A stretch of DNA of 64,000 nt from Patescibacteria group bacterium (lineage in GTDB: Bacteria > Patescibacteriota > Patescibacteriia > UBA9934): the NCBI GenBank assembly GCA_038064675.1, contig JBBTSM010000006.1, positions 7,776-71,775 on the forward strand. The letters run 5' to 3'. The stretch's first letter is position 1, and each line of letters opens with the position of its first letter. A program made the position numbers and the translations under genes. The notes beneath the pieces were generated by a model. The model was not told the DNA's origin, did not search any database, and was given only the letters and a program-made list of their open reading frames with translations. Of this stretch, positions 1 to 64,000 are shown one piece after another.

Positions 1-855
1 AACAATTCCAAGAATCGCCGCAGCTGGTCGGGCAATCTTCATCGACGGAATCGACTTCACCACAAATACCAATGCGAGGCCCACGAACAATCCAAGAAAT
101 GCCGAACGCGATCCCGTCAGCAGCATACCGATGATGAGAACGACCGTGCCGATGCTTGTGATAACCATCATCTTCCGACGAAAAAGCCCCCCTCCGATTC
201 CCCCCATAAATGGGGGGAGAGATTTCACCTGAGCCATGAAGGCCCACCAAGCGAACAGCCCAACACCGAGGAATCCCCCAAATACATTCGGATGCGGAAA
301 ACTTCCATAGGTACGAAGAACGCGCTCACCGCTGGCTGTAAATACGGCATCACCAAGCTGCGAAGCGTCGCGATACGCAAGACCGAGCCATGAGTTCGCA
401 GGCGAAGAACCGCCGAATACTTGAATGAGACCGAGCACGAAGGGTGCAGCCAACGACACGACAAAAGCAAAGAGCAGATGTTTTACACTGACGCGATCAA
501 TGAGAATCGCAACAAAAAGCGCGTACGCAAGGCCAAGATGCGTGACCGTCGACAATGAAAACGCTGATCGATCCGCAAACGCCGTACCAAGAACCGCAAC
601 GATAAGAACAATCCCGCCGAGACGAACGGGAAGCTGACGTTTCGCGTCGATCGTCCACCATTTCCGATCAAGAATACTCCCCCCGATGAGCGCAGCCGCA
701 AGAAGAAGCTCCACCGCATACAAGCTCATCACGCCGAACTCTGTGTGCGCGCCAGCAATGGAAACCTCGCTATACATCCATCGCGTTTGCCACGGCAGAA
801 GAAAGATCGTTATGGACAGGAACAGCGTCGTCCAATTTGGAAAGAAGCGTTTCAT
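1..855 (-). CDS. O-antigen ligase / Wzy_C-like polytopic membrane protein; C-terminus truncated by window edge; alternative start at 777
   Basis: Manual minus-strand translation is open from about 855 to position 1. It gives MKRFFPNWTTLFLSITIFLLPW..., several TM helices and a TGSRSAFLGLF motif typical of O-antigen ligase/polymerase-family proteins. Not in the ORF track because there is no stop codon inside the window. Confidence 0.5.
   Translation of the reverse strand, partial: MKRFFPNWTTLFLSITIFLLPWQTRWMYSEVSIAGAHTEFGVMSLYAVELLLAAALIGGSILDRKWWTIDAKRQLPVRLGGIVLIVAVLGTAFADRSAFSLSTVTHLGLAYALFVAILIDRVSVKHLLFAFVVSLAAPFVLGLIQVFGGSSPANSWLGLAYRDASQLGDAVFTASGERVLRTYGSFPHPNVFGGFLGVGLFAWWAFMAQVKSLPPFMGGIGGGLFRRKMMVITSIGTVVLIIGMLLTGSRSAFLGLFVGLALVFVVKSIPSMKIARPAAAILGIV
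187..222. repeat. GC-rich palindromic element copy (a): cccccctccgattccccccataaatggggggagaga, in-frame inside the O-antigen-ligase-like CDS
   Basis: Seen directly. About 30/34 identical to the copy at 15645-15678. Confidence 0.7.
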
Positions 856-3491: not shown

Positions 3492-4748
3492 TTACTCAGA
3501 AACTACAGGTGTCTCGACCGCAGCCTCAGCGACGGCTTCGACTGGCTCCGCAACAGCGTCCACATTTTCAACTGGAGCGATAACACCATCAGCCTGACGT
3601 TCCTGAATGTTTACCTTCCAACCAGTGAGTTTCGCCGCCAAACGGACGTTTTGACCACCGCGACCAATCGCGAGGGAAAGCTGATCGCTTGGAACAACGA
3701 CGATTGCTGCGTGTTCTGCCTCATCAAGATTTACCTCGAGCACCTTTGCCGGAGACAGCGCGTGCGTAATGAGTTCGCGTGGATTTTCGCTCCACTGGAC
3801 AATGTCGATCTTTTCGCCAGAGAGCTCTCCAGTAATCGTTTGGATACGGCTTCCGCGCTGCCCGATACATGCTCCGATTGGATCGATCCCCGCATCGGTA
3901 GATGCAACGGCGATCTTGGTACGCGCGCCAGCTTCGCGAGCAATCGCCTTAATGACGACGGTGCCCTCGGCGACTTCCGGAATTTCCACCATGAACAGCT
4001 TCTTTACCAACTCTTCACTGGTTCGGGAGAGCAAAATCTGCGCACCGCGCGAACCGAGCGACACTTCGCGAACGTAGAACTTCAAACGGTCTCCAGAGCG
4101 ATAGCGTTCCGTTGGCATCGCGTCTTCTGGCTTGATAATTCCAGCCGTGCGACCGATATCCACGAGAATAATACGGCCTTCACGACGCTGCACCGTTCCC
4201 ACAATTACATCGCCTTCGACACCCTTGAATTCGTTAAAGATGATTTCGCGCTCTGCTTCACGAAGCTTCTGGGTAATAACCTGCTTCGCGGTCATCGCTG
4301 CCATACGACCAAATTCCACAGCCTGTGGAAGCTCCGTACGCAACACGTCGCCAACCTTTGCACCCATCTTCATGAGCTGCGCGTCGGAAATCATGATGTC
4401 CGTTTTTGGATTGAACTTTGGTGCAATCTCGTCCACCGGTGTTTCTGTTGGTGGCATAAAGTCACCAAGCGCTTTCATTGCTTCGCGACGAGCCGATTCC
4501 TCAGCCTCAATCTTCTTCACCTCTTCCATTTCTTCTGCGGTAATATCTGCGACCACCGTTTTCACGTCGAAAATTCGAGCAAGGCCCGTTTCCGTATCGA
4601 ACTTCGCTTCAAGATTGTGATATTTGTCGCCAAAATCCTTACGATACGCCGCCGCCAATGCGGATTCGATCGTGGTCATGACACTTTCATACGAAAGGCC
4701 CTTCTCGTCACAAATCTGACGAATCGCTAACTCGATTGCACTTGCCAT
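3492..4748 (-). CDS. nusA: transcription termination/antitermination factor NusA
   Basis: 418 aa. N-terminal NusA domain, S1-like segment, KH repeats (GACIGQRGSRIQTITGELSGEKIDIV) and an acidic C-terminal tail. Confidence 0.9.
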   Translation of the reverse strand: MASAIELAIRQICDEKGLSYESVMTTIESALAAAYRKDFGDKYHNLEAKFDTETGLARIFDVKTVVADITAEEMEEVKKIEAEESARREAMKALGDFMPPTETPVDEIAPKFNPKTDIMISDAQLMKMGAKVGDVLRTELPQAVEFGRMAAMTAKQVITQKLREAEREIIFNEFKGVEGDVIVGTVQRREGRIILVDIGRTAGIIKPEDAMPTERYRSGDRLKFYVREVSLGSRGAQILLSRTSEELVKKLFMVEIPEVAEGTVVIKAIAREAGARTKIAVASTDAGIDPIGACIGQRGSRIQTITGELSGEKIDIVQWSENPRELITHALSPAKVLEVNLDEAEHAAIVVVPSDQLSLAIGRGGQNVRLAAKLTGWKVNIQERQADGVIAPVENVDAVAEPVEAVAEAAVETPVVSE

Positions 4749-8363: not shown

Positions 8364-9074
8364 ATGGCAAACATGAAATTTGGGCTTGTGGGACGGATTT
8401 TGACGATTCTTGCTGCAATCGTAGTAATCGTTGCTGGAATGGCGTGGATCGGTAATGCCCAAGACCGCGCAAAAGAACCACAAAAGCTCGAGGTCGCGGC
8501 CAATGACAATGACTGGTTTGAGGGTGGAAAAGATGCTTCTGTCGTGCTCGTCGAATATAGCGACTTCCAGTGCCCGGCCTGCGGCGCGTACTTCCCTGTT
8601 ATGAAAGGCCTTCAAGAGGCGTACGGCGACAAGCTCAAGATTGTCTACCGCAACTATCCGCTTGCCTCTATTCATGCAAACGCCCAACTCGCAGCACAGG
8701 CCGCAGAAGCTGCTGGCATTCAAGAACAGTTCTTTCTGATGCACGATCTGCTCTTTGGCAACCAACAAACATGGAGTACAGAAACCGACCCAACGAACAC
8801 CTTCATCGGCTACGCAACATCTATTGGTCTTGATGTTGAAAAGTTCAAAACTGACCTTACAAGCGATGAAGCATTCGAGTCCGTAAAAGACGACATTCGA
8901 AGCGGAGACAAATCAAACGTGGATTCCACGCCAACGTTCTTCTTGAATGGTGTGCGGATTGAGAAGAATCCCCAGGGCCTTGAGCCATTCAAGGTACTCA
9001 TCGATGCAGCCCTCCCGCCAACTCCGGTCGCCGATCCGGCAACATCGAGCATTGAAGTGACGACCACGCCGTAA
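8364..9074 (+). CDS. DsbA-like thiol:disulfide oxidoreductase (thioredoxin fold, CPAC active site), N-terminal membrane anchor
   Basis: VVLVEYSDFQCPACGAYFPVMKGL... Thioredoxin-fold CxxC motif after an N-terminal TM helix. Confidence 0.8.
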   Translation: MANMKFGLVGRILTILAAIVVIVAGMAWIGNAQDRAKEPQKLEVAANDNDWFEGGKDASVVLVEYSDFQCPACGAYFPVMKGLQEAYGDKLKIVYRNYPLASIHANAQLAAQAAEAAGIQEQFFLMHDLLFGNQQTWSTETDPTNTFIGYATSIGLDVEKFKTDLTSDEAFESVKDDIRSGDKSNVDSTPTFFLNGVRIEKNPQGLEPFKVLIDAALPPTPVADPATSSIEVTTTP

Positions 9075-11935: not shown

Positions 11936-13642
11936 TTACATCGCCTTCACAACTGAGATGTTCAAAAGTTCCATCGCGTTCGTGAGCGTCGAGCTCACGA
12001 CATCGGCGAGTCCCAAGCGCGCGGCGGTCAACGATGGCTGTTCTTCGTCGATCATATGTACCTCGGCATAGTACCGGGAAAACATCTGTGCAAGCTCGAA
12101 GGCGAACAAACACACCAACGACGGACGCATCTCTGTTCCGGCCTGTGCAACAATATCGGGATACTCCGACACTTTGCGCAACAACTGGACTTCTTGCGGA
12201 TCAATCAACGCCGATGCCAATGGGAACGCTGATACCTTCGTCTTTCCGTGCAGGCTATTGATACGTGCAATTGTGTAGAGAATATACGGCCCAGTAAATC
12301 CATCCGTCGCCATTGCCTCTTCCATGTCGAACACGAGAATCTTTCCAGGATCTTGGCGAAGCATCATGAACTTCATCGCCGCAAGCGCAATCGTAAGCGC
12401 ATTCGCATTCACCACTTTCTCCTTCCATTCTGGATGACGAAGCTTCGTGGAATCGACCAATGCCTGGAACATCGCATCGCGAAGCTCATCGTAGCGAACA
12501 ATATTTCCTTTCCGAGATGACATCGCACCATCAGGAAGTGTGACCATTTCGTACCCAACGTGTACAAGTTCCTTGTGGAAATCAAGGCGCTTCAACGTCG
12601 CGAACAGTTGCTTCATGTAGAGCGATTGACGAACGTCAATCACGAAGATTTGGCGATCCGGAGCGTAATCGTGATCTTTTTGTAACGCGAGCGCGAGATC
12701 CTTCGTTGCGTAGAGCGACGAACCATCCGTCTTAAGCACCAAGAACACACCGAGATTCTCGTCAGCGAGATCCACAATCGTTGCGCCCTCGCTTTTCTTT
12801 GCAATTCCGTCGGTGAGCATCTTTCGTACAAGCTCTTTCCCCGGTTTCTCTACTTCGCTTTCGTAATACCACACGCTCGGCTTTACTCCGAGTTCGGCGA
12901 ATACCTTCCGGAACTCATCAAGGCTCCACTCGCGAGTTTCCTTCCACAATCCAAGCCACGGCTGTTCCTCAGCCTCAAGCTTTCGTTGAATATCAGAAAT
13001 TTCTTCCTTCGCTTCTGGATGCTCGTCCACGAACTGCGTCGCCTTGGTATATGCATCGCCGAGTACTTTCGCGCGATCCTCCTTCGCGATCGTTTCATCA
13101 CCGTAAAATTTCTTAAATCCCCAGATGGCTTTTGCGACGTGTGCACCAATATCGCCGATGTATGCCGCAGCAATCGTGTCGTATCCGTTTGCTGTAACAA
13201 GATTTACGATCGATTGTCCGTAAATCGCGTTGCGCAAATGGCCAACATGGAATTCCTTGTGCGTATTTGGCTGTGCGTATTCCACAAGCACACGCTTCCC
13301 CTTCCCCGTTGTGCCACGTCCATACCGCTTCTTCGCCTTTGCAACATCATCAAGTACGTGTGTACCGAACGCTTCGTCGTCGAACGTGAAGTTGACGTAC
13401 GGCCCAGCCGACGTAATTTTCTTGATCATCTTCGACGGCCCGATCTTCGCCGCAAGTTCGGTTGCGATTTCGGCCGGATTGCGACCCATACCCTTTGCCA
13501 AGGTAAAACACGGGAAACTCAAATCGCCGAATCCCGGCTTTGGCGGCGACACAATCATGTCGGCCGTGAGCGTGAATGTTTTTCCCAACGCTTTTTTCAG
13601 CGCGGTATAGACCTCCTTCTTTGCAGTACTTCGTGCGGTCAT
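11936..13642 (-). CDS. argS: arginine--tRNA ligase
   Basis: 568 aa. Class I HVGH motif (VEYAQPNTHKEFHVGHLRNAIYG), an N-terminal Arg_tRNA_synt_N-like region and a C-terminal DALR-like anticodon-binding region. Confidence 0.9.
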   Translation of the reverse strand: MTARSTAKKEVYTALKKALGKTFTLTADMIVSPPKPGFGDLSFPCFTLAKGMGRNPAEIATELAAKIGPSKMIKKITSAGPYVNFTFDDEAFGTHVLDDVAKAKKRYGRGTTGKGKRVLVEYAQPNTHKEFHVGHLRNAIYGQSIVNLVTANGYDTIAAAYIGDIGAHVAKAIWGFKKFYGDETIAKEDRAKVLGDAYTKATQFVDEHPEAKEEISDIQRKLEAEEQPWLGLWKETREWSLDEFRKVFAELGVKPSVWYYESEVEKPGKELVRKMLTDGIAKKSEGATIVDLADENLGVFLVLKTDGSSLYATKDLALALQKDHDYAPDRQIFVIDVRQSLYMKQLFATLKRLDFHKELVHVGYEMVTLPDGAMSSRKGNIVRYDELRDAMFQALVDSTKLRHPEWKEKVVNANALTIALAAMKFMMLRQDPGKILVFDMEEAMATDGFTGPYILYTIARINSLHGKTKVSAFPLASALIDPQEVQLLRKVSEYPDIVAQAGTEMRPSLVCLFAFELAQMFSRYYAEVHMIDEEQPSLTAARLGLADVVSSTLTNAMELLNISVVKAM

Positions 13643-14865: not shown

Positions 14866-17520
14866 TTATGACACAAGCGCCGCATGCTCTTTTTGGAGCG
14901 CGGCAAGTTTTTCCTGAAGATCCGCAAGCTTTTGTCGCTCCCCCGCGATCACCTTCTCCGGTGCACGAGCAACAAAATCCGCATTCGCGAGCTTCGATTC
15001 TTGGGCGGCGATGAACTTTGTTGCTTCGGCGATTCCCGATTCGATACGCGCCTTTTCCGATGCCGCATCAACAGCCGGCAATTGCACAAAGATTTGCGCA
15101 GATCCAACCACAATCGGCGTAATCGATTCCGGACGCTCTTCGCCCGAACGAATCGCTTTCACTTTCGTTAAACCGCCGATGATCGATTCCATTCCCGACA
15201 AAACTCCTGCATTTACCATTACAATCGACTCCACATCCTTCGGCAATGTTTTGTGTTCCGAGAGATAATTGCGAATCGCAATCACCGCCGAACACACCTG
15301 ATCAAACGCCGATCGATCCTCCGACGACAATTCGTATTCAACCGTTGGCCACTTTGCGACGATGATCATTCCGGAGTTGAAATTCTTGTAGATTTCCTCA
15401 GTCACGAATGGAGCGAACGGGTGCCAAAGGATGAGCAGGCGTTCGAGAATGTAGAGAAGAACATCGCCCTTCTCGCCCTCGATCTTGGCGATCTCCAGGT
15501 ACCAGTCCGCGAAGTCGTTCCAGGTAAAATCACGCAACATTTCGATGGCGAGCGAGAAGTCGTAACGATCGATGAGTGAACTTACCTTCTTCGCCGTCTC
15601 GCTAAAACGCGCAAGAATCCATCGATCTGCGAGCGTCAGTGACGTCTCTCCCCCATTTATGGGGGAGTTGGAGGGGACGTCTACGTGTCGTGCTCCTCCC
15701 ACATTTCCGATAATAAATCGCGAAATGTTCCACAGCTTGTTCACAAGGTTGCGCGCAGCTTCCACCTTCTCTGTGTAATACCGCGAATCGTTTCCTGGCG
15801 TGTTACCAGAAAGGACGGAGATCCGAAGCGCATCGCAGCCGTATTCGTTGATCACTTCGATTGGATCGATGTTGTTTCCCGATGATTTTGAAAACTTGTT
15901 CCCGTCCTTATCACGCAACAAACCGTGCATGTACGCATTGTTGAACGGAACTTGATTCAACGCATACGAACTCATCAAAATCATGCGCATCAACCAGAGG
16001 TACAAAATCTCATACCCCATCTGGATCCAATTCGTTGGATGGAAGTTCTTGAGATCAGATGTCTTCTCAGGCCAGCCGAGCGTAGAAAACGTCCACGAAC
16101 CGCTTGAGAACCAGGTGTCGAGCGTGTCTTCGTCCTGAACCCAACCATCGCCTTCTGGCCTTGCACCAACAGCAATCTCTTCACCGCGATACCACGCCGG
16201 GATTCTATGACCCCACCAAATTTGGCGCGACAAACACCAATCGCGCAGATTGTTTACGCGATCAAGGTAGAGTTTTGTAAATCGCTCTGGCGTGATCGAT
16301 ACTTTTTGTGATGCATCGCCATTCAATCCTGTCGTCACCGCATCACGCATCAAATCCTTCAACGTCTTTCCACGTCCTGGAATTTCCTTGTTCACGTTCA
16401 GCCACCATTGCGTCATCGGAACCGACTCGATGACGTCGCCATAGCGATCGGACGTTCCAACGTTCTGAATGATGTCCTTTGAGTCTTCGAGAAGCCCTTG
16501 CCCCGAAAGCCATGCAACAACAGTTGCTCGAGCCTTTTCGACGGTTTGTCCAGCAACCAACTGCCCCGCTTCGACAGTCATCTTCCCATCAAGTCCGATC
16601 ACTTGGATAATCTCGATCGGATCCTGCTTCGCCTTCTGCACTTCGTACATTCCAAAGTCGATCGGGCTGTGCGCAGGCGTCACGCCCAGAGCGCCAGTAC
16701 CGAACGATGGATCAACCTCCTCGCTCGCGATAACTTTGATCGTCAATTTCGACCCCGCGAAATCAACATTGAATGTTTTTCCGATGAATGCCGTGTAACG
16801 ATCGTCAGCCGGGTGCACCGCAACAGCCGTATCGCCCACCTTCGTTTCTGGGCGTGTCGTCGAAATCGCAATTGGAAAATCTTTGCTGTATTTGAACGTG
16901 TAGAGAACGGAAGCTCGCTCGATCGTCTCGATTTCGTCATCGGATGACGTCGATTGTCCCTTCACCGACCAATTCACCACCCGGAATCCGCGATAGATAA
17001 GACCATCGTTGTACATTCGCGTAAAAAGCTCATTCACCGCAACGTTTCGCTTCTCGTCGAACGTGTATGCCAAACGGCTCCAGTCGGCGCTGGTTCCCAT
17101 CTTTTTCACCTGGCTCAAAATCGTCGATTTCGATTGCTCGGCAAACTCACGAATCTTTTCAACGAGCTTTTCTCGTCCAAGCTCTTGGCGAGGATTCTTG
17201 ATCCCGTCGGCCATCAACAGTTTTTCCACCTTTGCCTGCGTTGGCAACGCGGCATGGTCGGTTCCCGGAATAAGAAGTGCTTTCTTCCCTAAAAGACGCT
17301 GATAGCGAACCATCGCGTCCATGAGGGAATTTTCCAGCGCATGGCCAAGGTGCAACACGCCGGTAACGTTTGGCGGCGGCATCACGACAGTGAACGCCTC
17401 AGTGGAATCCGTAACATTCGGCAAATTCTCTGGCGTAAAAAAGCCTGAGCTTAGCCAAGATTCGTAAATTCCATCTTCCACCAACTTCGCCTCGTACGCT
17501 TTTGCCATTTCGTTCGCCAT
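14866..17520 (-). CDS. valS: valine--tRNA ligase (start chosen at MANEMAKAYEAK; ORF open to 17583)
   Basis: PPPNVTGVLHLGHALENSLMD and KFSKSSGN (KMSKS) motifs, an editing domain and a C-terminal coiled coil (QEKLAALQKEHAALVS). Confidence 0.9.
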   Translation of the reverse strand: MANEMAKAYEAKLVEDGIYESWLSSGFFTPENLPNVTDSTEAFTVVMPPPNVTGVLHLGHALENSLMDAMVRYQRLLGKKALLIPGTDHAALPTQAKVEKLLMADGIKNPRQELGREKLVEKIREFAEQSKSTILSQVKKMGTSADWSRLAYTFDEKRNVAVNELFTRMYNDGLIYRGFRVVNWSVKGQSTSSDDEIETIERASVLYTFKYSKDFPIAISTTRPETKVGDTAVAVHPADDRYTAFIGKTFNVDFAGSKLTIKVIASEEVDPSFGTGALGVTPAHSPIDFGMYEVQKAKQDPIEIIQVIGLDGKMTVEAGQLVAGQTVEKARATVVAWLSGQGLLEDSKDIIQNVGTSDRYGDVIESVPMTQWWLNVNKEIPGRGKTLKDLMRDAVTTGLNGDASQKVSITPERFTKLYLDRVNNLRDWCLSRQIWWGHRIPAWYRGEEIAVGARPEGDGWVQDEDTLDTWFSSGSWTFSTLGWPEKTSDLKNFHPTNWIQMGYEILYLWLMRMILMSSYALNQVPFNNAYMHGLLRDKDGNKFSKSSGNNIDPIEVINEYGCDALRISVLSGNTPGNDSRYYTEKVEAARNLVNKLWNISRFIIGNVGGARHVDVPSNSPINGGETSLTLADRWILARFSETAKKVSSLIDRYDFSLAIEMLRDFTWNDFADWYLEIAKIEGEKGDVLLYILERLLILWHPFAPFVTEEIYKNFNSGMIIVAKWPTVEYELSSEDRSAFDQVCSAVIAIRNYLSEHKTLPKDVESIVMVNAGVLSGMESIIGGLTKVKAIRSGEERPESITPIVVGSAQIFVQLPAVDAASEKARIESGIAEATKFIAAQESKLANADFVARAPEKVIAGERQKLADLQEKLAALQKEHAALVS
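15645..15678. repeat. GC-rich palindromic element copy (b), in-frame inside valS (encodes VPSNSPINGGETS)
   Basis: Reverse complement tcccctccaactcccccataaatgggggagaga aligns with copy (a). Confidence 0.7.
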
Positions 17521-17634
17521 AGATAGCACGCAGTGTAGACGAAAAGGCGATTTTGGGGTAGGATTCTCTGTCCGTGGGGGCAATCCCTAGGGCACCGCAG
17601 ACGGCCGGACCGCCGTCGTTCACATAGGTTTTTC

Positions 17635-23221: not shown

Positions 23222-23227
23222 ACAAAA

Positions 23228-23253
23228 CACCGTCCGCAATGGACGGTGTTTTG
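23228..23253 (+). terminator. Rho-independent terminator
   Basis: caccgtcc-gcaat-ggacggtg hairpin followed by tttt, immediately after the 22388-23221 CDS. Confidence 0.6.
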
Positions 23254-23330
23254 TGGTGCGCGCACGTGGACTCGAACCACGGACCTTCACAATGTCAATG
23301 TGACGCTCTAACCAACTGAGCTATGCGCGC
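23254..23330 (-). tRNA. tRNA-Val (anticodon GAC), CCA encoded
   Basis: Acceptor GCGCGCA/UGCGCGC, anticodon stem UCACA/UGUGA with loop UUGACAU, T-arm CGUGG-UUCGAGU-CCACG. Confidence 0.85.
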
Positions 23331-26247: not shown

Positions 26248-26258
26248 TCTCATCAAAA

Positions 26259-26288
26259 CCCCGGCTCTCACGAGCCGGGGTTTTGTAT
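26259..26288 (+). terminator. Rho-independent terminator after rplS
   Basis: ccccggctc-tcac-gagccgggg perfect 9-bp hairpin followed by ttttgtattg. Confidence 0.8.
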
Positions 26289-38608: not shown

Positions 38609-38692
38609 CGAGTGTAAAGACCTCTTTACACTTTTCCGATCAAAATGCCCAACGAAAGTGGAGAAATGTGTGTAAAGAGGTCTTTACACTCG
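38609..38692. repeat. perfect 23-nt inverted repeat pair (cgagtgtaaagacctctttacac / gtgtaaagaggtctttacactcg) separated by 37 nt
   Basis: Seen directly. Lies in the convergent intergenic region between the AT-rich HExxH gene and the DUF11-like gene. Each arm is itself nearly palindromic. Confidence 0.6.
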
Positions 38693-57565: not shown

Positions 57566-57639
57566 AACCTTCTGTCAGATCGGTTCAAAAATCACTCGCA
57601 ACACTGCGAGTGATTTTTGTTTCTTGATATACTTCGGCT

Positions 57640-58524
57640 ATGCCACAACGTCGACACACCATTTCCGCCATTACCGATGGCGACGTCCGCAAACTCGAGC
57701 TCATCGCGAATAGCATCCGTGAGGATATTTTAAAGATGCTTCTTACTGCGGGCAGCGGCCATAGTGCCGGACCTCTTGGAATGGCAGATATCTTCACCGC
57801 CCTCTACTTTCACATTCTCCATCACAACCCGAAGCGGCCAACATGGGACGAGCGCGATCGGTTATTTCTGAGCAACGGTCATATTGTCCCTGTTCGCTAC
57901 GCCACCATGGCACACGCTGGCTACTTCCCCATCGACGGACTCAAAACTCTACGAAAGTTCGGTTCTCGCCTTCAAGGACATCCGGAAATGCGATTTCTCC
58001 CGGGGCTCGAAAACACGTCCGGCCCGCTCGGTGATGGATCGTCGCAAGCTGTTGGCGCCGCATACGTCGCAAAAATGGATGGATCACCATGGCACACGTA
58101 TTGCGTCATGAGCGACGGCGAACTGGAATGTGGAATTACGTGGGAAGCTGCGCTCTTCGCCGCGAAAAATCAGCTGAACAATCTCACGTGGATCATCGAC
58201 CGCAACAACATCCAAATCGACGGCTATACAGAAGATATCATGCCGCTTGAACCACTCCACGATAAATTTACCGCATTCGGCTGGAATGTTCTGGAGATTG
58301 ATGGCCACAATATTCGCGACATCATCAATGCCTGCGACCGTGGAGAAAGTACCTGGGAGGCACCAACGGTCATTATCGCCCATACCATTCCCGGCAAAGG
58401 CGTCAGTTTCATGGAATGCGAGCCGAGTTGGCACGGAAAGCCACCGAAAGACCGAAAAGAACTTGGTGCAGCACTCAAGGAATTACGAACCTTAGGAGGA
58501 AAAATATCTAACGAAAGTCTATGA
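57640..58524 (+). CDS. transketolase, N-terminal (TPP-binding) subunit of a split transketolase
   Basis: MLLTAGSGHSAGPLGMADIFTALYFHILHHNP...GHPE... matches transketolase N-terminal-section signatures. Confidence 0.85.
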   Translation: MPQRRHTISAITDGDVRKLELIANSIREDILKMLLTAGSGHSAGPLGMADIFTALYFHILHHNPKRPTWDERDRLFLSNGHIVPVRYATMAHAGYFPIDGLKTLRKFGSRLQGHPEMRFLPGLENTSGPLGDGSSQAVGAAYVAKMDGSPWHTYCVMSDGELECGITWEAALFAAKNQLNNLTWIIDRNNIQIDGYTEDIMPLEPLHDKFTAFGWNVLEIDGHNIRDIINACDRGESTWEAPTVIIAHTIPGKGVSFMECEPSWHGKPPKDRKELGAALKELRTLGGKISNESL

Positions 58525-59501
58525 CCCGTACCCCATCGTTCCTTGCACGCATCGCTCGACTCATGCTCATTACCGGCCTAGTGCTCGTCGCGCTCATTTT
58601 GCTCGCAACATATGCAAGCATGCCACGACCGTCTTCCATGATGAGCTGGTGGGATAAAACCGAACGGAACGCTGTCACAAGCTCGTCGTCCGGGAGCGTC
58701 AGTGCATCGGATTCCTTCGGCGGAGGAATGATGGGATACGCCATCGCGCCAGAAACCGCACCGGCGCCATCAGCGACTACAACAACGGACGTTTCAACAA
58801 CGACAACCGTGGATCAGCGCGTCATTAAAACAGGATCGATCGACATGACATCGAACGACGTGCCATCAACGGTAAGCCTCGTTTCGAACCTCGCAACAAT
58901 ACGGGGTGGCTTTGTTCAAACATCCTCAACGAGCGACGATGAACAAGGAAAAACCTCGGCATACATTGTTCTTCGAGTTCCTTCCGGCGATTTTGATGCA
59001 ACGATGACCGACATTAAAGGGTTTGGCGTGCATGTAAATAACGAATCGATTTCCGGTGAAGACGTCACAGAACAGTTCACCGACGTTTCCGCTCGGCTCG
59101 CCGCTGCGAAGGCGCAGGAAGAGCAATATCTCATCATTCTCAAGAGTGCCACCACCGTTGGCGAAGTTCTCGCTGTTCAAGAACATCTTGCGATTGTTCG
59201 TGCAGACATCGAATCACTTCAGGGCCAAGTCAACTACCTCACCAACCGCACCGATCTCGCAACGATCAGCATCGTGGTTTCTGAAGAGCCAACCGCAGAG
59301 ACCGCGAGCGACAGCAAATTCGATCCTGCGCGCGATGCAAACTCTGCAGTCGCTCTCGTTATTACCCTTGGTCAGCATGCACTTTCCGTGCTGATCTGGG
59401 CGGCTATCATCGGTACCGCCGTCGGCATTCCTGTTGGTCTTGTTGCATTCATCTACTGGCTCATCACTCGTCGTCGAGATGTTTCAAAGCGCAGAAAGTA
59501 A
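58521..59501 (+). CDS. DUF4349-like membrane-anchored protein with coiled coil
   Basis: N-terminal TM, central coiled coil (RLAAAKAQEEQYLIILKSATTVGEVLAVQEHLAIVRADIESLQGQVNYL), C-terminal TM. 4-nt overlap with the transketolase N-terminal gene. Confidence 0.5.
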   Translation: MTRTPSFLARIARLMLITGLVLVALILLATYASMPRPSSMMSWWDKTERNAVTSSSSGSVSASDSFGGGMMGYAIAPETAPAPSATTTTDVSTTTTVDQRVIKTGSIDMTSNDVPSTVSLVSNLATIRGGFVQTSSTSDDEQGKTSAYIVLRVPSGDFDATMTDIKGFGVHVNNESISGEDVTEQFTDVSARLAAAKAQEEQYLIILKSATTVGEVLAVQEHLAIVRADIESLQGQVNYLTNRTDLATISIVVSEEPTAETASDSKFDPARDANSAVALVITLGQHALSVLIWAAIIGTAVGIPVGLVAFIYWLITRRRDVSKRRK

Positions 59502-59506
59502 CTCGA

Positions 59507-59540
59507 CCCCCTCCTTACTCCCCCTTGGTAAGGGGGAGAG
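59507..59540. repeat. GC-rich palindromic element copy (c): cccctccttactcccccttggtaagggggagag, upstream of the DUF559 gene
   Basis: Same architecture (CCCCTCC-NN-CTCCCCC-loop-GGGGGAG) with a different loop. Confidence 0.65.
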
Positions 59541-59561
59541 TTATCGACTGAATCTGATCTC

Positions 59562-59948
59562 ATGACACGGATATACAATCAGGAATGGAGTATAGAACGA
59601 CGAAAATCCATGCGATCAAACATGACCGGACCGGAACAGTTGCTATGGAAAGCGCCGAGAGGAGAATCGCTCGGTATAAAGTTTCGACGACAATTCGGCA
59701 TTGGTCCATATATCGCGGATTTTTACTCTCCAAGGAATAAGCTCGTCATCGAAATCGACGGAGGATCACACGCACACCCAAATGCACGAACCTACGATGA
59801 CGAGCGTGACGCTTTCATGATCGGTCTTGGAATAAACGTTTTGCGTTTCTCAAATCACGAAGTCCTTTCAAATATCGACGATGTTCTTCTTCGAATTCAG
59901 GAGGCGATACCCCTCCCCCTTGCCAAGGGGGAGTCGGAGGGGGTTTAG
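59562..59948 (+). CDS. DUF559 / Vsr-like endonuclease-domain protein
   Basis: 128 aa: LLWKAPRGESLGIKFRRQFGIGPYIADFYSPRNKLVIEIDGGSHAHPNARTYDDERDAFMIGLGINVLRFSNHEVL matches the DUF559 pattern. The C-terminal 12 aa are encoded by a palindromic repeat copy. Confidence 0.75.
   Translation: MTRIYNQEWSIERRKSMRSNMTGPEQLLWKAPRGESLGIKFRRQFGIGPYIADFYSPRNKLVIEIDGGSHAHPNARTYDDERDAFMIGLGINVLRFSNHEVLSNIDDVLLRIQEAIPLPLAKGESEGV
59911..59945. repeat. GC-rich palindromic element copy (d), inverted relative to (c), forming the 3' end of the DUF559 CDS
   Basis: ccctcccccttgccaagggggagtcggaggggg; its reverse complement begins ccccctccgact... Confidence 0.65.
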
Positions 59949-59965
59949 AATGTTACAATACGCGC

Positions 59966-60952
59966 ATGTCCACCCTCGCCAGCGCAAAACTCGTCAAAGA
60001 TCTCTTTGCGAAAACCATCAAAACCGAACCAACGCGGAATGGTTTTGGTCGAGGGTTGGTTGAAGCTGGGATACGGAACGAATCCGTGGTGGCACTCTGT
60101 GCAGACTTGAGCGAATCCACTCGCGTGCTCGATTTTAAGAACGCATTTCCGGATCGGTACGTTCAGATGGGTGTTTCCGAACAATCGCTTGCGGCTATCG
60201 CTTCCGGCATGGCACTCGCAGGAAAGATTCCATTCATCGCAAGCTATGCCGCATTCTCCCCTGGCAGAAATTGGGAGCAAATCCGTACTACGGGATGCTT
60301 GCAAAACGTGAATCTCAAAATCGCTGGGGCTCACGCCGGCGTTTCCGTTGGCCCAGATGGCGCAACACATCAAATGACCGAGGATATCGCACTCATGCGC
60401 GTGTTGCCGAACATGACGGTTCTTGTGCCGTGTGATGCGATTGAGGCAGAGAAGGCAACCATCGCCGCAGCCGAAATCGATGGACCAGTCTACATTCGCC
60501 TTGGTCGTGAGGCGACACCGATCTTCACTACAGAAAAGTCCCCTTTCGAAATCGGTAAGGCGCAAGTTCTGACGAAGGGAAACGATGTTGCGATTATCGC
60601 CTGTGGCCCTCAAGTCTACGAAGCGCTCAAAGCGGCACGCGATCTCGAAAAATCTGGAATCGATGCGCGCGTGATCAATTGTGTCTCGATCAAACCTCTC
60701 GATAAGGAGACGATCGTAAAGGCAGCGAAAGAATGCGGCGCAGTCGTAACTGTCGAAGAAGCGCAGATCGCCGGCGGCATGGGCAGCGCAGTGTGCGAGC
60801 TACTGTCGGAAGAATGCCCTGTGCCGATCATAAGAATCGGAATGAACGATACATTTGGGCAGTCTGGAACACCGGATGAACTCCTTGAACACTATCACCT
60901 CACTGCAGCGTGGATTGTGAAGGCGGCAAAGCAAGCCATGAAACGACGATAG
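59966..60952 (+). CDS. transketolase, C-terminal (pyrimidine-binding + C-terminal domain) subunit
   Basis: FGRGLVEAGIRNESVVALCADLSESTRV...MGVSEQSLAAIASGMALAGKIPF matches transketolase C-terminal-section signatures. Confidence 0.85.
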   Translation: MSTLASAKLVKDLFAKTIKTEPTRNGFGRGLVEAGIRNESVVALCADLSESTRVLDFKNAFPDRYVQMGVSEQSLAAIASGMALAGKIPFIASYAAFSPGRNWEQIRTTGCLQNVNLKIAGAHAGVSVGPDGATHQMTEDIALMRVLPNMTVLVPCDAIEAEKATIAAAEIDGPVYIRLGREATPIFTTEKSPFEIGKAQVLTKGNDVAIIACGPQVYEALKAARDLEKSGIDARVINCVSIKPLDKETIVKAAKECGAVVTVEEAQIAGGMGSAVCELLSEECPVPIIRIGMNDTFGQSGTPDELLEHYHLTAAWIVKAAKQAMKRR

Positions 60953-60954
60953 GT

Positions 60955-62214
60955 ATGTATGAAGATCACTTTTTACCCCATGAAGGGCTGAAGGTTCCGG
61001 AACCTTCGGCCGCTGAAGGCCTAGAGCGCTACCATGAAAAATTGCACGCCCTGCAATTTTTGCACTTGCGATCGCCAGCGACCGAATACGACGATGAACG
61101 CCGAGGAGAGCAGCCAATGCCACATCAAAACACCGAAGCCCGATGGAATACCGTTCTTGAAACGGTAACCACAACACTCACAACCGACGACGCCTGGAGC
61201 AGTGATCGATTGATGCGGGGCCTTGTTGAAAACACGTGTATTGGCGTCCTTCGCGAATTCCCGCACTGGAATACCAACGCTCGACTAAACGGGCGACTTT
61301 TAACGCTGCTGGATACCGCGATAATTTCTGCGCGAGAACACGCCGGCGAACATGACGATCTCGACATCGTGAGCGAAAATACGCTCGACGAACTCATTAG
61401 CTCACCAGAAGCCAATCCCCTTCTCCGACGCAAGGCCGAGGCGATGCTGTCGAGAAATACTAACTGGTGGCCACCAGACGCAGGGTTGCGCCGAGAGATC
61501 CTTACGCGGTTCAAGGCTCCATACGAACTCAATGGGAAAACCCACTGGGAAGGACTCGCCGAAGGCGTAACTGATCAAGATCTTCTTGCCATACCTGAAC
61601 CATGGTTTGACGAAGAGGCGGTGGTGGAATTTTTATGGGAAAAGCAGGTGCGAGCGCAAGAAGACTCCGCGCTACGCAAGTCGTCCGATGATCCAGCGCT
61701 CGTGATCGTCAAACTCTCTCCCGAAAACGTTGGCGCGTACGATCGCATGGGTCGACTTGTAGGTGTACGAGACGCCGAGTACGGAGCGGTCACTCCACTC
61801 GCTCAACATCCAGACCTCGTGCGACCAGATGTTGCAGAAGATATTGCTTTTACGTTTGATCTTGGCATGCGAACGCAGCTCAGCAAAGATTTCGGTTTTC
61901 CAATCGAACACCTCACACTTCGCGAACAGGTTTCTCTTATTGGAACACTCAGAGAAATCACCTGGGTGCTCGGCCCCCAGTCCACGGCGATGGACGAAGC
62001 CGAGAAATTCCTCCGTGAAAAGGGGGAGAAGATCGCCTACGCCTGGAAAGGTGAGCGGCGAGCGCTCCCCGGAGAGTCGCAATGCGGCGTCGGAGGATGG
62101 GACCACACCGGGTCACTCGTCATGGTGGATGCTCTCGTTGAACTCACGGGGTATCGCATCACCACCGCAGGCCAAGTGCCTGCGCAGTGGGCGCGACTGC
62201 GCAAGCAAACCTGA
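60955..62214 (+). CDS. hypothetical protein (start MYEDHF chosen 2 nt after the transketolase C stop; ORF opens at 60910)
   Basis: About 420 aa, acidic, no motif recognised. Confidence 0.4.
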   Translation: MYEDHFLPHEGLKVPEPSAAEGLERYHEKLHALQFLHLRSPATEYDDERRGEQPMPHQNTEARWNTVLETVTTTLTTDDAWSSDRLMRGLVENTCIGVLREFPHWNTNARLNGRLLTLLDTAIISAREHAGEHDDLDIVSENTLDELISSPEANPLLRRKAEAMLSRNTNWWPPDAGLRREILTRFKAPYELNGKTHWEGLAEGVTDQDLLAIPEPWFDEEAVVEFLWEKQVRAQEDSALRKSSDDPALVIVKLSPENVGAYDRMGRLVGVRDAEYGAVTPLAQHPDLVRPDVAEDIAFTFDLGMRTQLSKDFGFPIEHLTLREQVSLIGTLREITWVLGPQSTAMDEAEKFLREKGEKIAYAWKGERRALPGESQCGVGGWDHTGSLVMVDALVELTGYRITTAGQVPAQWARLRKQT

Positions 62215-62248: not shown

Positions 62249-62424
62249 CTTCATGAATACCGAACGTATGCTGTCGGAATTTCTCATGCCTCTCTCTCGG
62301 CGTGCGAATCTTTCGTTCGTATGTACGGTATTCCTGAGGATCCCCCAGCAATATGTTGAGGGATTTCTGTATAGGGAAAACTCTTTCAAAGTCGCTGTAT
62401 CTCTCTCACAGCGGTTTTCATCAA

Positions 62425-62457
62425 ACACCACCCAGCAATGGGTGGTGTTTGTGTTTT
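62425..62457 (+). terminator. Rho-independent terminator
   Basis: acaccaccc-agcaat-gggtggtgt hairpin followed by ttgtgtttt. Confidence 0.6.
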
Positions 62458-63646: not shown

Positions 63647-64000
63647 ATGTTCTTTTTCTGGATACTTTTCGTCATCGTAGGCACCATGGCATGGGGCTCC
63701 ATTCTTGCGGCTCCGTGGGTGCCAACCCTTTCGGCGCAAAGGAAGTTGTTGGTTGATAGTCTCGTCATACCTCCCCCCGACCCCCTCCTTCGAAAGGAGG
63801 GGGAGAAATCGGTGACCATTTACGATCTCGGCTGCGGATCCGGATCGATTCTCTTCGAATTCGCCGATCGGTATCCAAACGCTCGTTGCATCGGCTACGA
63901 CGTTGCGCTTCTTCCCCTTTTCATCGGAATGATGGTGAAACTTCGTCATCCGATAAAATATAAAAACGTTTCACTCCGATTTGGAAATTTCTTCAAGAAA
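63647..64000 (+). CDS. class I SAM-dependent methyltransferase with N-terminal TM helix (3' end truncated by window)
   Basis: Manual translation: MFFFWILFVIVGTMAWGSILAAPW...SVTIYDLGCGSGSILFEFADRYPNARCIGYDV (motif I). A palindromic repeat copy encodes PPPDPLLRKEGEK in-frame. Confidence 0.5.
   Translation, partial: MFFFWILFVIVGTMAWGSILAAPWVPTLSAQRKLLVDSLVIPPPDPLLRKEGEKSVTIYDLGCGSGSILFEFADRYPNARCIGYDVALLPLFIGMMVKLRHPIKYKNVSLRFGNFFKK
63770..63806. repeat. GC-rich palindromic element copy (e), in-frame inside the partial methyltransferase CDS
   Basis: cctccccccgaccccctccttcgaaaggagggggagaaa: perfect ccccctcctt/aaggaggggg stem. Confidence 0.6.

Follow-up and report, generated by a model that had tools for sequence, protein, structure and literature searches.

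A 464-bp segment within a 64,000-nucleotide stretch of a Patescibacteria group bacterium (assembly GCA_038064675.1, contig JBBTSM010000006.1, positions 7,776 to 71,775; this whole stretch is called the window) consists of a small nuclease gene of the DUF559 family bracketed by inverted copies of a short repeat. This compact repeat-gene-repeat cassette was inserted as a unit into a gap of 3 nt between two resident genes. We refer to the repeat as TM, for intrastrand triplex motif, and to its window copies as a through e. Solo TMs of the same family have been inserted elsewhere in the clade, and tight physical linkage between DUF559 genes and TMs was found across several phyla; more widely, triplex-motif repeats systematically surround DUF559 genes. 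The explanation we favor, with modest confidence, is that TM-DUF559-TM is a gene-carrying member of the TM family in which DUF559 serves as the cognate TM nuclease and host repair copies the TMs, where we infer both the nuclease activity on TMs and the copying. The cassette has the following features, in window coordinates.

59502..59965, + strand: lineage-specific insertion of 464 bp, comprising the left TM, the DUF559 gene, the right TM and 22 nt of right flank
59507..59538, − strand: left TM (copy c); on the + strand, outer C-arm 59507-59514, linker 59515-59517 and hairpin 59518-59538
59562..59948, + strand: DUF559 (YcjD-like PD-(D/E)XK, Vsr-fold) nuclease gene, 128 aa, PF04480
59913..59943, + strand: right TM (copy d); hairpin 59913-59933, linker TCG 59934-59936 and third arm 59937-59943

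The left copy reads as the outer arm CCCCCTCC (59507-59514), the linker TTA and the hairpin CTCCCCCTT-GGT-AAGGGGGAG (59518-59538), and the right copy as the hairpin CTCCCCCTTG-C-CAAGGGGGAG, the linker TCG and the outer arm GAGGGGG, which is the mirror of GGGGGAG. An earlier note on this DNA had described the copies flanking the 128-aa gene as inverted relative to one another, and this was borne out: copies c and d are true reverse complements with their third arms pointing outward, and a repeat search placed them in inverted-repeat arms of 42 nt (59508-59549 and 59902-59943) that are 81% complementary and lie 352 nt apart. On the left, this similarity reaches 59549, past the hairpin end at 59538. 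The cassette therefore has terminal inverted repeats, a feature of the kind found in insertion sequences (IS) and miniature inverted-repeat transposable elements (MITE). The 21-nt hairpin core, with 4 matches where shuffles expect 0.01, occurs at two sites only, namely the flanking copies. A terminator scan called neither of these two TMs terminator-like, its sole regional hit lying elsewhere on the − strand, and a scan for sigma-70 consensus promoters that required a −35 element found no promoter in the cassette region. Two small sequence features lie beside the right TM. A GGGG(A)GTTTAGAAT motif after the third arm is also present in locus L122, with a near match, GTTAGAAT, in L087. An extended −10-like sequence, TGTTACAAT, lies at 59951..59959 (+) in the inserted DNA, 6 nt upstream of the start codon of tktC, the next gene downstream, and may be an outward promoter that arrived with the insertion and could drive tktC.

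The DUF559 protein matched PF04480 over residues 13-116 (profile positions 6-108 of 109; E=7.7e-29, 100.2 bits against a cutoff of 20.6). Beyond the domain, residues 117-128 (PLPLAKGESEGV) are translated from the right TM, which thus supplies the last 12 residues, as the earlier note had read it; the TAG stop (59946-59948) sits 3 nt past the third arm of this TM. Many homologues also end in Pro/Gly-rich tails (PLLTKEG, PSLRRRG, PPYEGG, PPAKGESEGV) that are translated repeats. In the AlphaFold2 model (predicted local distance difference test score, pLDDT, 83), the repeat-encoded tail is disordered. A profile built from 40 homologues matched PDB 3hrl, the DUF559 protein of N. gonorrhoeae (E=1e-32), and the catalytic domain of I-Bth0305I (E=4e-4), and the best Foldseek matches of the model were 3hrl, 3r3p and 1vsr, with Vsr the more distant. 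Residues D53, E64, D66 and H70 are invariant across the 40 homologues and, by homology, are probably catalytic. Pfam detected only DUF559 and MTES_1575 in the window protein, with no HUH/Y1 domain and no known transposase family. Judged by its sequence, the protein appears to be a single-domain hydrolytic nuclease without HUH or DDE features.

Each TM is laid out as a C-rich stem, a loop, a G-rich stem, a linker of 2-4 nt and a third G-rich arm that mirrors the G-stem. A purpose-built finder, used together with a hairpin scan, identified exactly five TMs in the window, compared with 0-1 in shuffled sequences. The mirror rule is evident in the stems, where GGGGGAG is followed by GAGGGGG and, in copy e, the stem GGAGGGGG by the arm GGGGGAGG. 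Among the elements of related loci, the third arm was better described as a mirror in 55 cases and as a direct copy in 9, with 17 ties; when distinct stem sequences were counted, the mirror prevailed by 31 to 6. A stem of pyrimidines, a stem of purines and a purine arm mirroring the latter are the predicted ingredients of a fold-back purine-motif triplex, in the register of which an arm G lies opposite a G:C pair and an arm A opposite an A:T pair (G.G:C, A.A:T). Folding of the left TM as single-stranded DNA with ViennaRNA, which covers Watson-Crick pairs only, predicted a 9-bp hairpin stem and an unpaired third arm. The possibility that the third arm is a Watson-Crick partner was also considered and rejected, given that it does not complement the C-stem outside the G/C run and stays unpaired in most folds.

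Holder et al. (2015) catalogued "intrastrand triplex motifs", of which the E. coli family, TMECO, is related to BoxC (PMC4666352). All five window copies show the pattern defined there, with three blocks no shorter than 6-8 nt, loops of 1-6 nt and no more than one mismatch, whereas the TMECO consensus, CCCTCNCCC N3-6 GGGNGAGGG N3 GGGNGAGGG, does not fit the window TMs, whose stems differ. By these sequence criteria, the window palindrome is a member of the published intrastrand triplex motif class but not of the TMECO sequence family.

The evidence that the cassette is an insertion comes from its neighbors in the transketolase (tkt) operon.

57640..58524, + strand: tktN, transketolase N-terminal subunit gene (PF00456, E=4e-54)
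58521..59501, + strand: DUF4349 gene, resident neighbor (PF14257, E=2e-47)
59966..60952, + strand: tktC, transketolase C-terminal subunit gene (PF02779, PF02780), directly downstream of the insertion

The bacterium is a Candidatus Uhrbacteria, and the closest TktC loci are from Uhrbacteria metagenome-assembled genomes. In loci L002 and L003, whose TktC proteins are 89% and 84% identical to that of the window, the tktC ATG follows the DUF4349 stop after 3 nt (TAA-TCT-ATG and TAG-ACT-ATG, respectively) rather than after the 464 nt seen in the window, and the orthologous junction contains neither DUF559 nor the palindrome. We therefore conclude that the 464 bp from 59502 to 59965 is a lineage-specific insertion, whose empty site is seen in these two relatives. 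No relative that we compared has a DUF4349-DUF559 arrangement without flanking repeats. The earlier note had rightly placed DUF559 and DUF4349 between tktN and tktC. DUF4349 is not part of the inserted unit. It lies between tktN and tktC in at least seven relatives whose loci show both genes (L002, L003, L005, L009, L012, L016 and L018) and adjoins tktC in L008 and L014, while in L001 and L004 tktN is directly beside tktC. DUF4349 is therefore a resident of the tkt locus in this clade, and only 59502-59965 is new.

The inserted unit has relatives in other surroundings. The closest cassettes elsewhere, in L081 (62% protein identity) and L146, share homology with the window cassette over the whole span between and including the outer arms, beyond which the flanks are unrelated. 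In a set of 80 metagenome loci, selected solely by a DUF559 peptide motif, none had tkt, DUF4349 or rpe near DUF559. We also considered whether the locus might be a fractured gene with split inteins, and rejected this reading because split transketolase is ancestral in all 80 relatives, in some of which the pair is adjacent without an insert. No intein-domain Pfam match was found in tktN or tktC, and in every relative each tkt subunit has a gene of its own. No cytosine-5 methyltransferase, linkage to which is a trait of Vsr repair, lies beside the cassette, the neighbors being DUF4349 and tktC. On the far side of tktC, a 434-aa open reading frame (60910-62214) without a Pfam match lies between tktC and a pseudouridine synthase gene. 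L002 and L003 lack this frame, the synthase closely following tktC there, and L001 has a homologue of it with 40% identity. This region is a second variable spot beside the tkt genes.

The three remaining TMs in the window are solo copies.

187..218, − strand: copy a, in frame in an open frame on the − strand, at least 256 aa long and cut off by the window start (...KSLPPFMGGIGGGLF...)
15648..15677, + strand: copy b, in frame in valS (14866-17583, − strand), encoding the peptide VPSNSPINGGETS
63771..63803, − strand: copy e, in a SAM (S-adenosylmethionine)-methyltransferase-like gene (+ strand, from 63647; Methyltransf_31/25 Pfam matches)

All three are in frame inside coding sequences and encode Pro/Gly-rich peptides of 10-12 residues. 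The architecture that the earlier note had seen as common to the flanking copies and the valS and "ligase" elements is indeed shared; the name "ligase" for the copy-a gene found no support, as Pfam gave no family for this frame at E<=1e-3. In valS, the copy-b peptide falls just ahead of the anticodon-binding domain, and GACGTCT stands on either side of the copy, 35 nt apart, which argues against a simple in-frame duplication. Copy e, which was absent from the list in the earlier note, is an in-frame insertion of 33 nt (11 codons) relative to the L002 and L003 orthologues, where the alignment has a gap; the inserted peptide was recorded as ...IPPPDPLLRKEGEKS... and also as ...PPPDPLLRKEGEK.... 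Conversely, the rpe gene (ribulose-phosphate 3-epimerase) of L003 contains an in-frame TM of the same family (1573-1603; ...APSLLPHKWGRDHVP...) that the window and L001 lack. These two polymorphisms indicate that the TM family has been active in this clade, with only tolerated in-frame insertions seen.

Palindromes of other kinds also occur in the window. Four long perfect hairpins with stems of 13-15 bp that open with an A-rich run and close with its T-rich complement, of the CAAAA...TTTTG type (57586-57619, 23222-23254, 26254-26285 and 62422-62451), look like bidirectional intrinsic terminators, one of them just upstream of tktN. Two related AT-rich palindromes, at 38611-38632 (AGTGTAAAGACCTCTTTACACT) and 38670-38689 (GTGTAAAGAGGTCTTTACAC), start 59 nt apart, and this pair at 38611-38689 could represent paired operator sites.

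Linkage between DUF559 genes and repeats extends well beyond the window. In the metagenome set, a bracketing inverted repeat (score >=13) was found at 41 of the 68 loci with full flanks, compared with 1 of 334 control placements on the same contigs. With the strict finder, TM density was 4.77/kb within 150 nt of the DUF559 gene and 0.21/kb in the rest of the contigs; in unrelated tkt loci it was 0.0057/kb (871 kb). A TM was present on at least one side of the gene at 53 of 67 loci and on both sides at 25. Median distances were ~17 nt from the end of the upstream TM to the start codon and ~12 nt from the domain end to the beginning of the downstream TM, and the DUF559 reading frame entered a TM at 30 of 51 loci. 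Nearest oriented TM pairs were inverted in 19 of 25 cases (15 with inward-pointing third arms and 4 with outward-pointing ones, the window arrangement) and direct in 6.

Two further arrangements were seen in metagenome loci. At six loci (L122, L125, L096, L118, L119 and L152), DUF559 is found in tandem or dispersed arrays with units of ~100-150 nt. The units begin with a copy of the DUF559 gene's own 3′ end and hold hairpins, and they look like gene-less deletion derivatives of the cassette. In the Parcubacteria tkt locus L046, four TMs of another sequence family lie within 13 kb (4245-4288, 8609-8633, 12246-12278), and no match to the window DUF559 protein was detected at this locus; dense TMs can thus occur where no DUF559 gene is visible.

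The same association was found in cultured bacteria. A tblastn search with residues 1-116 against plasmid and chromid records gave 31 records, from which ten loci were fetched (Photobacterium, two Deinococcus, Azospirillum, Synechocystis, Picosynechococcus PCC 7002, N. gonorrhoeae, Sinorhizobium, Pseudanabaena and Sphingomonas). TMs were present within 400 nt of the DUF559 gene at all ten, which represent five bacterial classes, and within ±20 kb on four annotated replicons the density was 2.8 TM/kb near the gene and 0.054/kb elsewhere. Deinococcus proteolyticus has the outward TM arrangement of the window, and in a Vibrio homologue a TM overlaps the stop codon. In Sphingomonas (L176, 19962-20372) a TM-flanked DUF559 gene separates sufB and sufC, and in two Deinococcus species (L166 and L168) the gene occupies different intergenic gaps of the same hpa cluster; these insertions interrupt operons, as that of the window does. 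The association of DUF559 copies elsewhere with this kind of palindrome, which the earlier note had proposed as a check, is thus seen in metagenome and cultured loci alike.

E. coli provides a second setting in which gene and repeat meet. TMECO forms triplexes in vitro, TMECO loci show excess rearrangement, and the elements are frequently found as inverted pairs of two subtypes; when the gene contexts of TMECO sites were inspected, the authors never found transposase or integrase remnants (PMC4666352). In K-12, TMECO #9 falls in the fabI-ycjD interval at a distance of 167 nt from ycjD, whose annotation is DUF559 domain-containing protein. The order there (L164, NC_000913.3 1351030-1351840) is a degenerate TM on the ycjD stop, a partial duplicate (~45 nt) of the ycjD 3′ end and the perfect TMECO #9. 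The BoxC repeat was presumably first named from this envM/fabI region. At the fabI-sapF site, ycjD replaces eefRABCD in phylogroups A, B1 and C, and it is also present there in ST69 and ST182, with at least two losses of the eef operon (PMC12817139). By published count, TMECOs number 19-30 in strains such as MG1655, BL21, HS, 55989, IAI1, E24377A and W, 6-15 in strains such as 042, UMN026, IAI39, SMS-3-5 and Sakai, and 1-2 in strains such as CFT073, UTI89, IHE3034, S88 and SE15 (PMC4666352). The ycjD region is found in 3377 of 5426 complete E. coli genomes. We take the strains with 19-30 TMECOs to belong to phylogroups A/B1, those with 6-15 to D/E/F and those with 1-2 to B2. Phylogroups D, E and F generally carry eefRABCD and not ycjD (PMC12817139).

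Under the explanation that we favor, DUF559 would recognize the TM, either as a folded or extruded hairpin-triplex or by its sequence, and would nick or cut at the recognized copy. Because a PD-(D/E)XK hydrolase is expected to form no covalent DNA intermediate, we invoke host repair and recombination, which would copy the TM, or the whole TM-gene-TM unit, into the broken site. By analogy, the arrangement is best read as one that would work like the repetitive extragenic palindromic (REP) sequences and their REP-associated tyrosine transposases (RAYT), with another enzyme class and another DNA structure. The suggestion in the earlier note of a small mobile or homing unit gains support from the empty sites and from the association of DUF559 with the palindrome elsewhere; as to its further suggestion that DUF559 mobilizes the palindromes, association and insertion polymorphism agree with it, and it is the mobilization itself that we infer. 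A broader proposal, which we advance tentatively and regard as a serious possibility rather than a probable one, is that DUF559/YcjD is the cognate nuclease of intrastrand-triplex repeats across Bacteria, so that TM-DUF559-TM would be the autonomous form of a hitherto unrecognized class of mobile element whose ends are read as a hairpin-triplex and processed by a Vsr-fold PD-(D/E)XK hydrolase, with solo TMs as its non-autonomous progeny.

Several observations weigh against the explanation that we favor. Clean 33-nt insertions at formerly TM-free sites call for more than a hydrolytic nuclease. No target-site duplication was seen in the window, and comparison of filled and empty alleles, together with L081 and L146, gave nothing consistent; CTCGA is present on both sides in L081, but the same CTCGA adjoins the left end of the window cassette and could thus be part of the element. 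Flanks were inspected for a conserved target at 183 TMs and showed just a T-rich bias. The orientation of flanking TMs is not uniform (15 inward, 4 outward and 6 direct), ~20% of DUF559 loci have no strict TM nearby, and the Oceanisphaera homologue (L162) has none. Only one DUF559 gene was found when a second was sought in the 64-kb window by tblastn. In E. coli, the strains that we assume to be of phylogroups D/E/F still hold 6-15 TMECOs, generally without ycjD, and the contrast in TMECO counts by ycjD lineage, while suggestive, reflects very few independent evolutionary events.

We weighed four other explanations against these data. DUF559 might be a selfish homing-type nuclease whose gene lands in pre-existing TMs, especially inverted doublets, where the enzyme cuts; a gene-bearing doublet would then serve as the repair template from which the gene is copied, and the TMs would be mere targets that spread by another route. 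Gene-less inverted TM doublets do exist, for example at L108 (302-408), five inverted pairs of type A with type B are known in E. coli (PMC4666352), and the commonest arrangement in our loci, with third arms inward (15 of 25), is that of a doublet with a gene in its spacer. The fold resembles the catalytic domain of the homing endonuclease I-Bth0305I, and the DUF559 gene is present or absent between strains. However, the empty sites in L002 and L003 lack any TM, so that the TMs came with the gene or earlier, and the single 116-aa domain has no counterpart of the extra DNA-binding domain of I-Bth0305I. In addition, distal TM density is ~37-fold higher on DUF559 contigs than on unrelated contigs, which fits a gene that promotes the spread of TMs. 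We therefore regard homing into existing TMs as unlikely. Less probable still is a host-side role, in which DUF559 would be a domesticated Vsr-like enzyme that repairs or processes TM hairpins, triplexes or mismatches; the adjacent TMs would then be regulators or hitch-hikers, and the gene would not bring about its own movement. The DUF559-domain protein VsrA of Caulobacter, which is linked to a cytosine methyltransferase and behaves as a chromosomal DNA-damaging endonuclease of the repair type (PMC12907096), sets a precedent for such a role, and the gene is single-copy in the window and conserved within E. coli phylogroups A, B1 and C; single-copy occurrence with vertical inheritance is equally a trait of RAYTs. 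Yet the same site is empty in close relatives, the gene occupies different intergenic positions of one hpa cluster in two Deinococcus species, operons are interrupted (tkt in the window and sufB-sufC in Sphingomonas), and no methyltransferase partner adjoins the window gene.

An invertible switch, in which the flanking inverted repeats drive programmed inversion of the DUF559 segment, has a published observation in its favor. A screen of the bacterial domain for inverted repeats that overlap coding sequences showed a 14-fold enrichment of "DUF559 domain-containing protein" among the predicted targets of programmed inversion (PMC9881135). This enrichment is an independent sign of the same anatomy. 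As an account of the cassette we consider inversion very improbable, given that no recombinase gene adjoins it, that the repeats are just 31-42 nt and 81% matched, that TMs are direct rather than inverted at 6 of 25 loci, and that solo copies and empty sites would be left unexplained. Finally, GC-rich hairpins are common at gene ends, and the arrangement could in principle reflect chance or ordinary terminator hairpins around a small gene. We give this almost no credence: the observed inverted-repeat score was reached by a single one of the 334 control placements, the finder returned five TMs compared with 0-1 in shuffles, neither TM was terminator-like in the scan, and elements of the family lie inside coding sequences.

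Window TMs and TMECO are alike in their blocks (C-stem, loop of 1-6 nt, G-stem, loop and mirrored second G-stem), in being dispersed and multi-copy with frequent inverted pairs of two sequence subtypes, and in occupying loci that are unstable or polymorphic between relatives. They differ in sequence, the window family being CTCCCCC...GGGGGAG...GAGGGGG with stems of 7-9 nt and TMECO being CCCTCNCCC; in location, window solo copies being in frame in genes and TMECO always intergenic; and in that TMs of the window and other loci bracket DUF559, a link absent from the Holder paper (PMC4666352). The REP/RAYT (REPIN) system has the same plan of a usually single-copy, nuclease-type gene between inverted copies of the genome's dispersed palindrome, and its repeats also occur as inverted doublets and clusters. 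In contrast to the PD-(D/E)XK Vsr-fold hydrolase of the window, RAYT is an HUH/Y1 single-strand transposase, and REPs have a GTAG or CGTC head, lack a mirror third arm and are extragenic; no GTAG or CGTC tag was found at the hairpin foot in the flanks of the 183 TMs. Because both enzyme class and repeat tags differ, we do not count the cassette as a REP/RAYT member.

The homing endonuclease I-Bth0305I (3r3p; Vsr-like/EDxHD) shares a related catalytic fold (E=4e-4; Foldseek template-modelling (TM-) score 0.59/0.76), and both genes are free-standing, selfish-looking and present or absent between close relatives. The window gene, however, sits in an intergenic gap and not in an intron, an intein or a gene fractured by split inteins, its protein lacks an N-terminal DNA-binding domain, and the gene is bordered by structured repeats and not by a long unique target split in two. 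The palindromic elements of Rickettsia (RPE) resemble the solo TMs as short palindromes in frame in genes that are tolerated as extra peptide. RPEs are ~100-150 bp long, have unrelated sequences and are not known to have an associated gene, whereas the window elements are ~30-33 nt and linked to DUF559. Two relatives of the protein, YcjD of E. coli and NGO0050 of N. gonorrhoeae (3hrl; ~39% sequence identity to the window protein), belong to the DUF559 family, have the same single-domain size and have TMs beside their genes; these TMs are of another sequence family, and in E. coli and Neisseria they lie downstream of the gene only.

The link between DUF559 and TMs appears to be unreported in the searchable literature on DUF559, ycjD, these repeats and RAYT/REPIN. 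It provides a candidate partner on both sides: for the TMs, which are abundant repeats of unstable loci to which no enzyme or mobility mechanism had been tied, and for DUF559, a large and widespread nuclease-fold family with essentially no assigned function. E. coli K-12 has both ycjD and 23 TMECO copies, so that the link is directly testable there. If it is correct, it would account for the C-terminal tails and short Pro/Gly-rich inserts that proteins of these genomes carry, and TM-DUF559-TM would represent a second system of the REP/RAYT kind, built on a different chemistry and on a non-B DNA structure.

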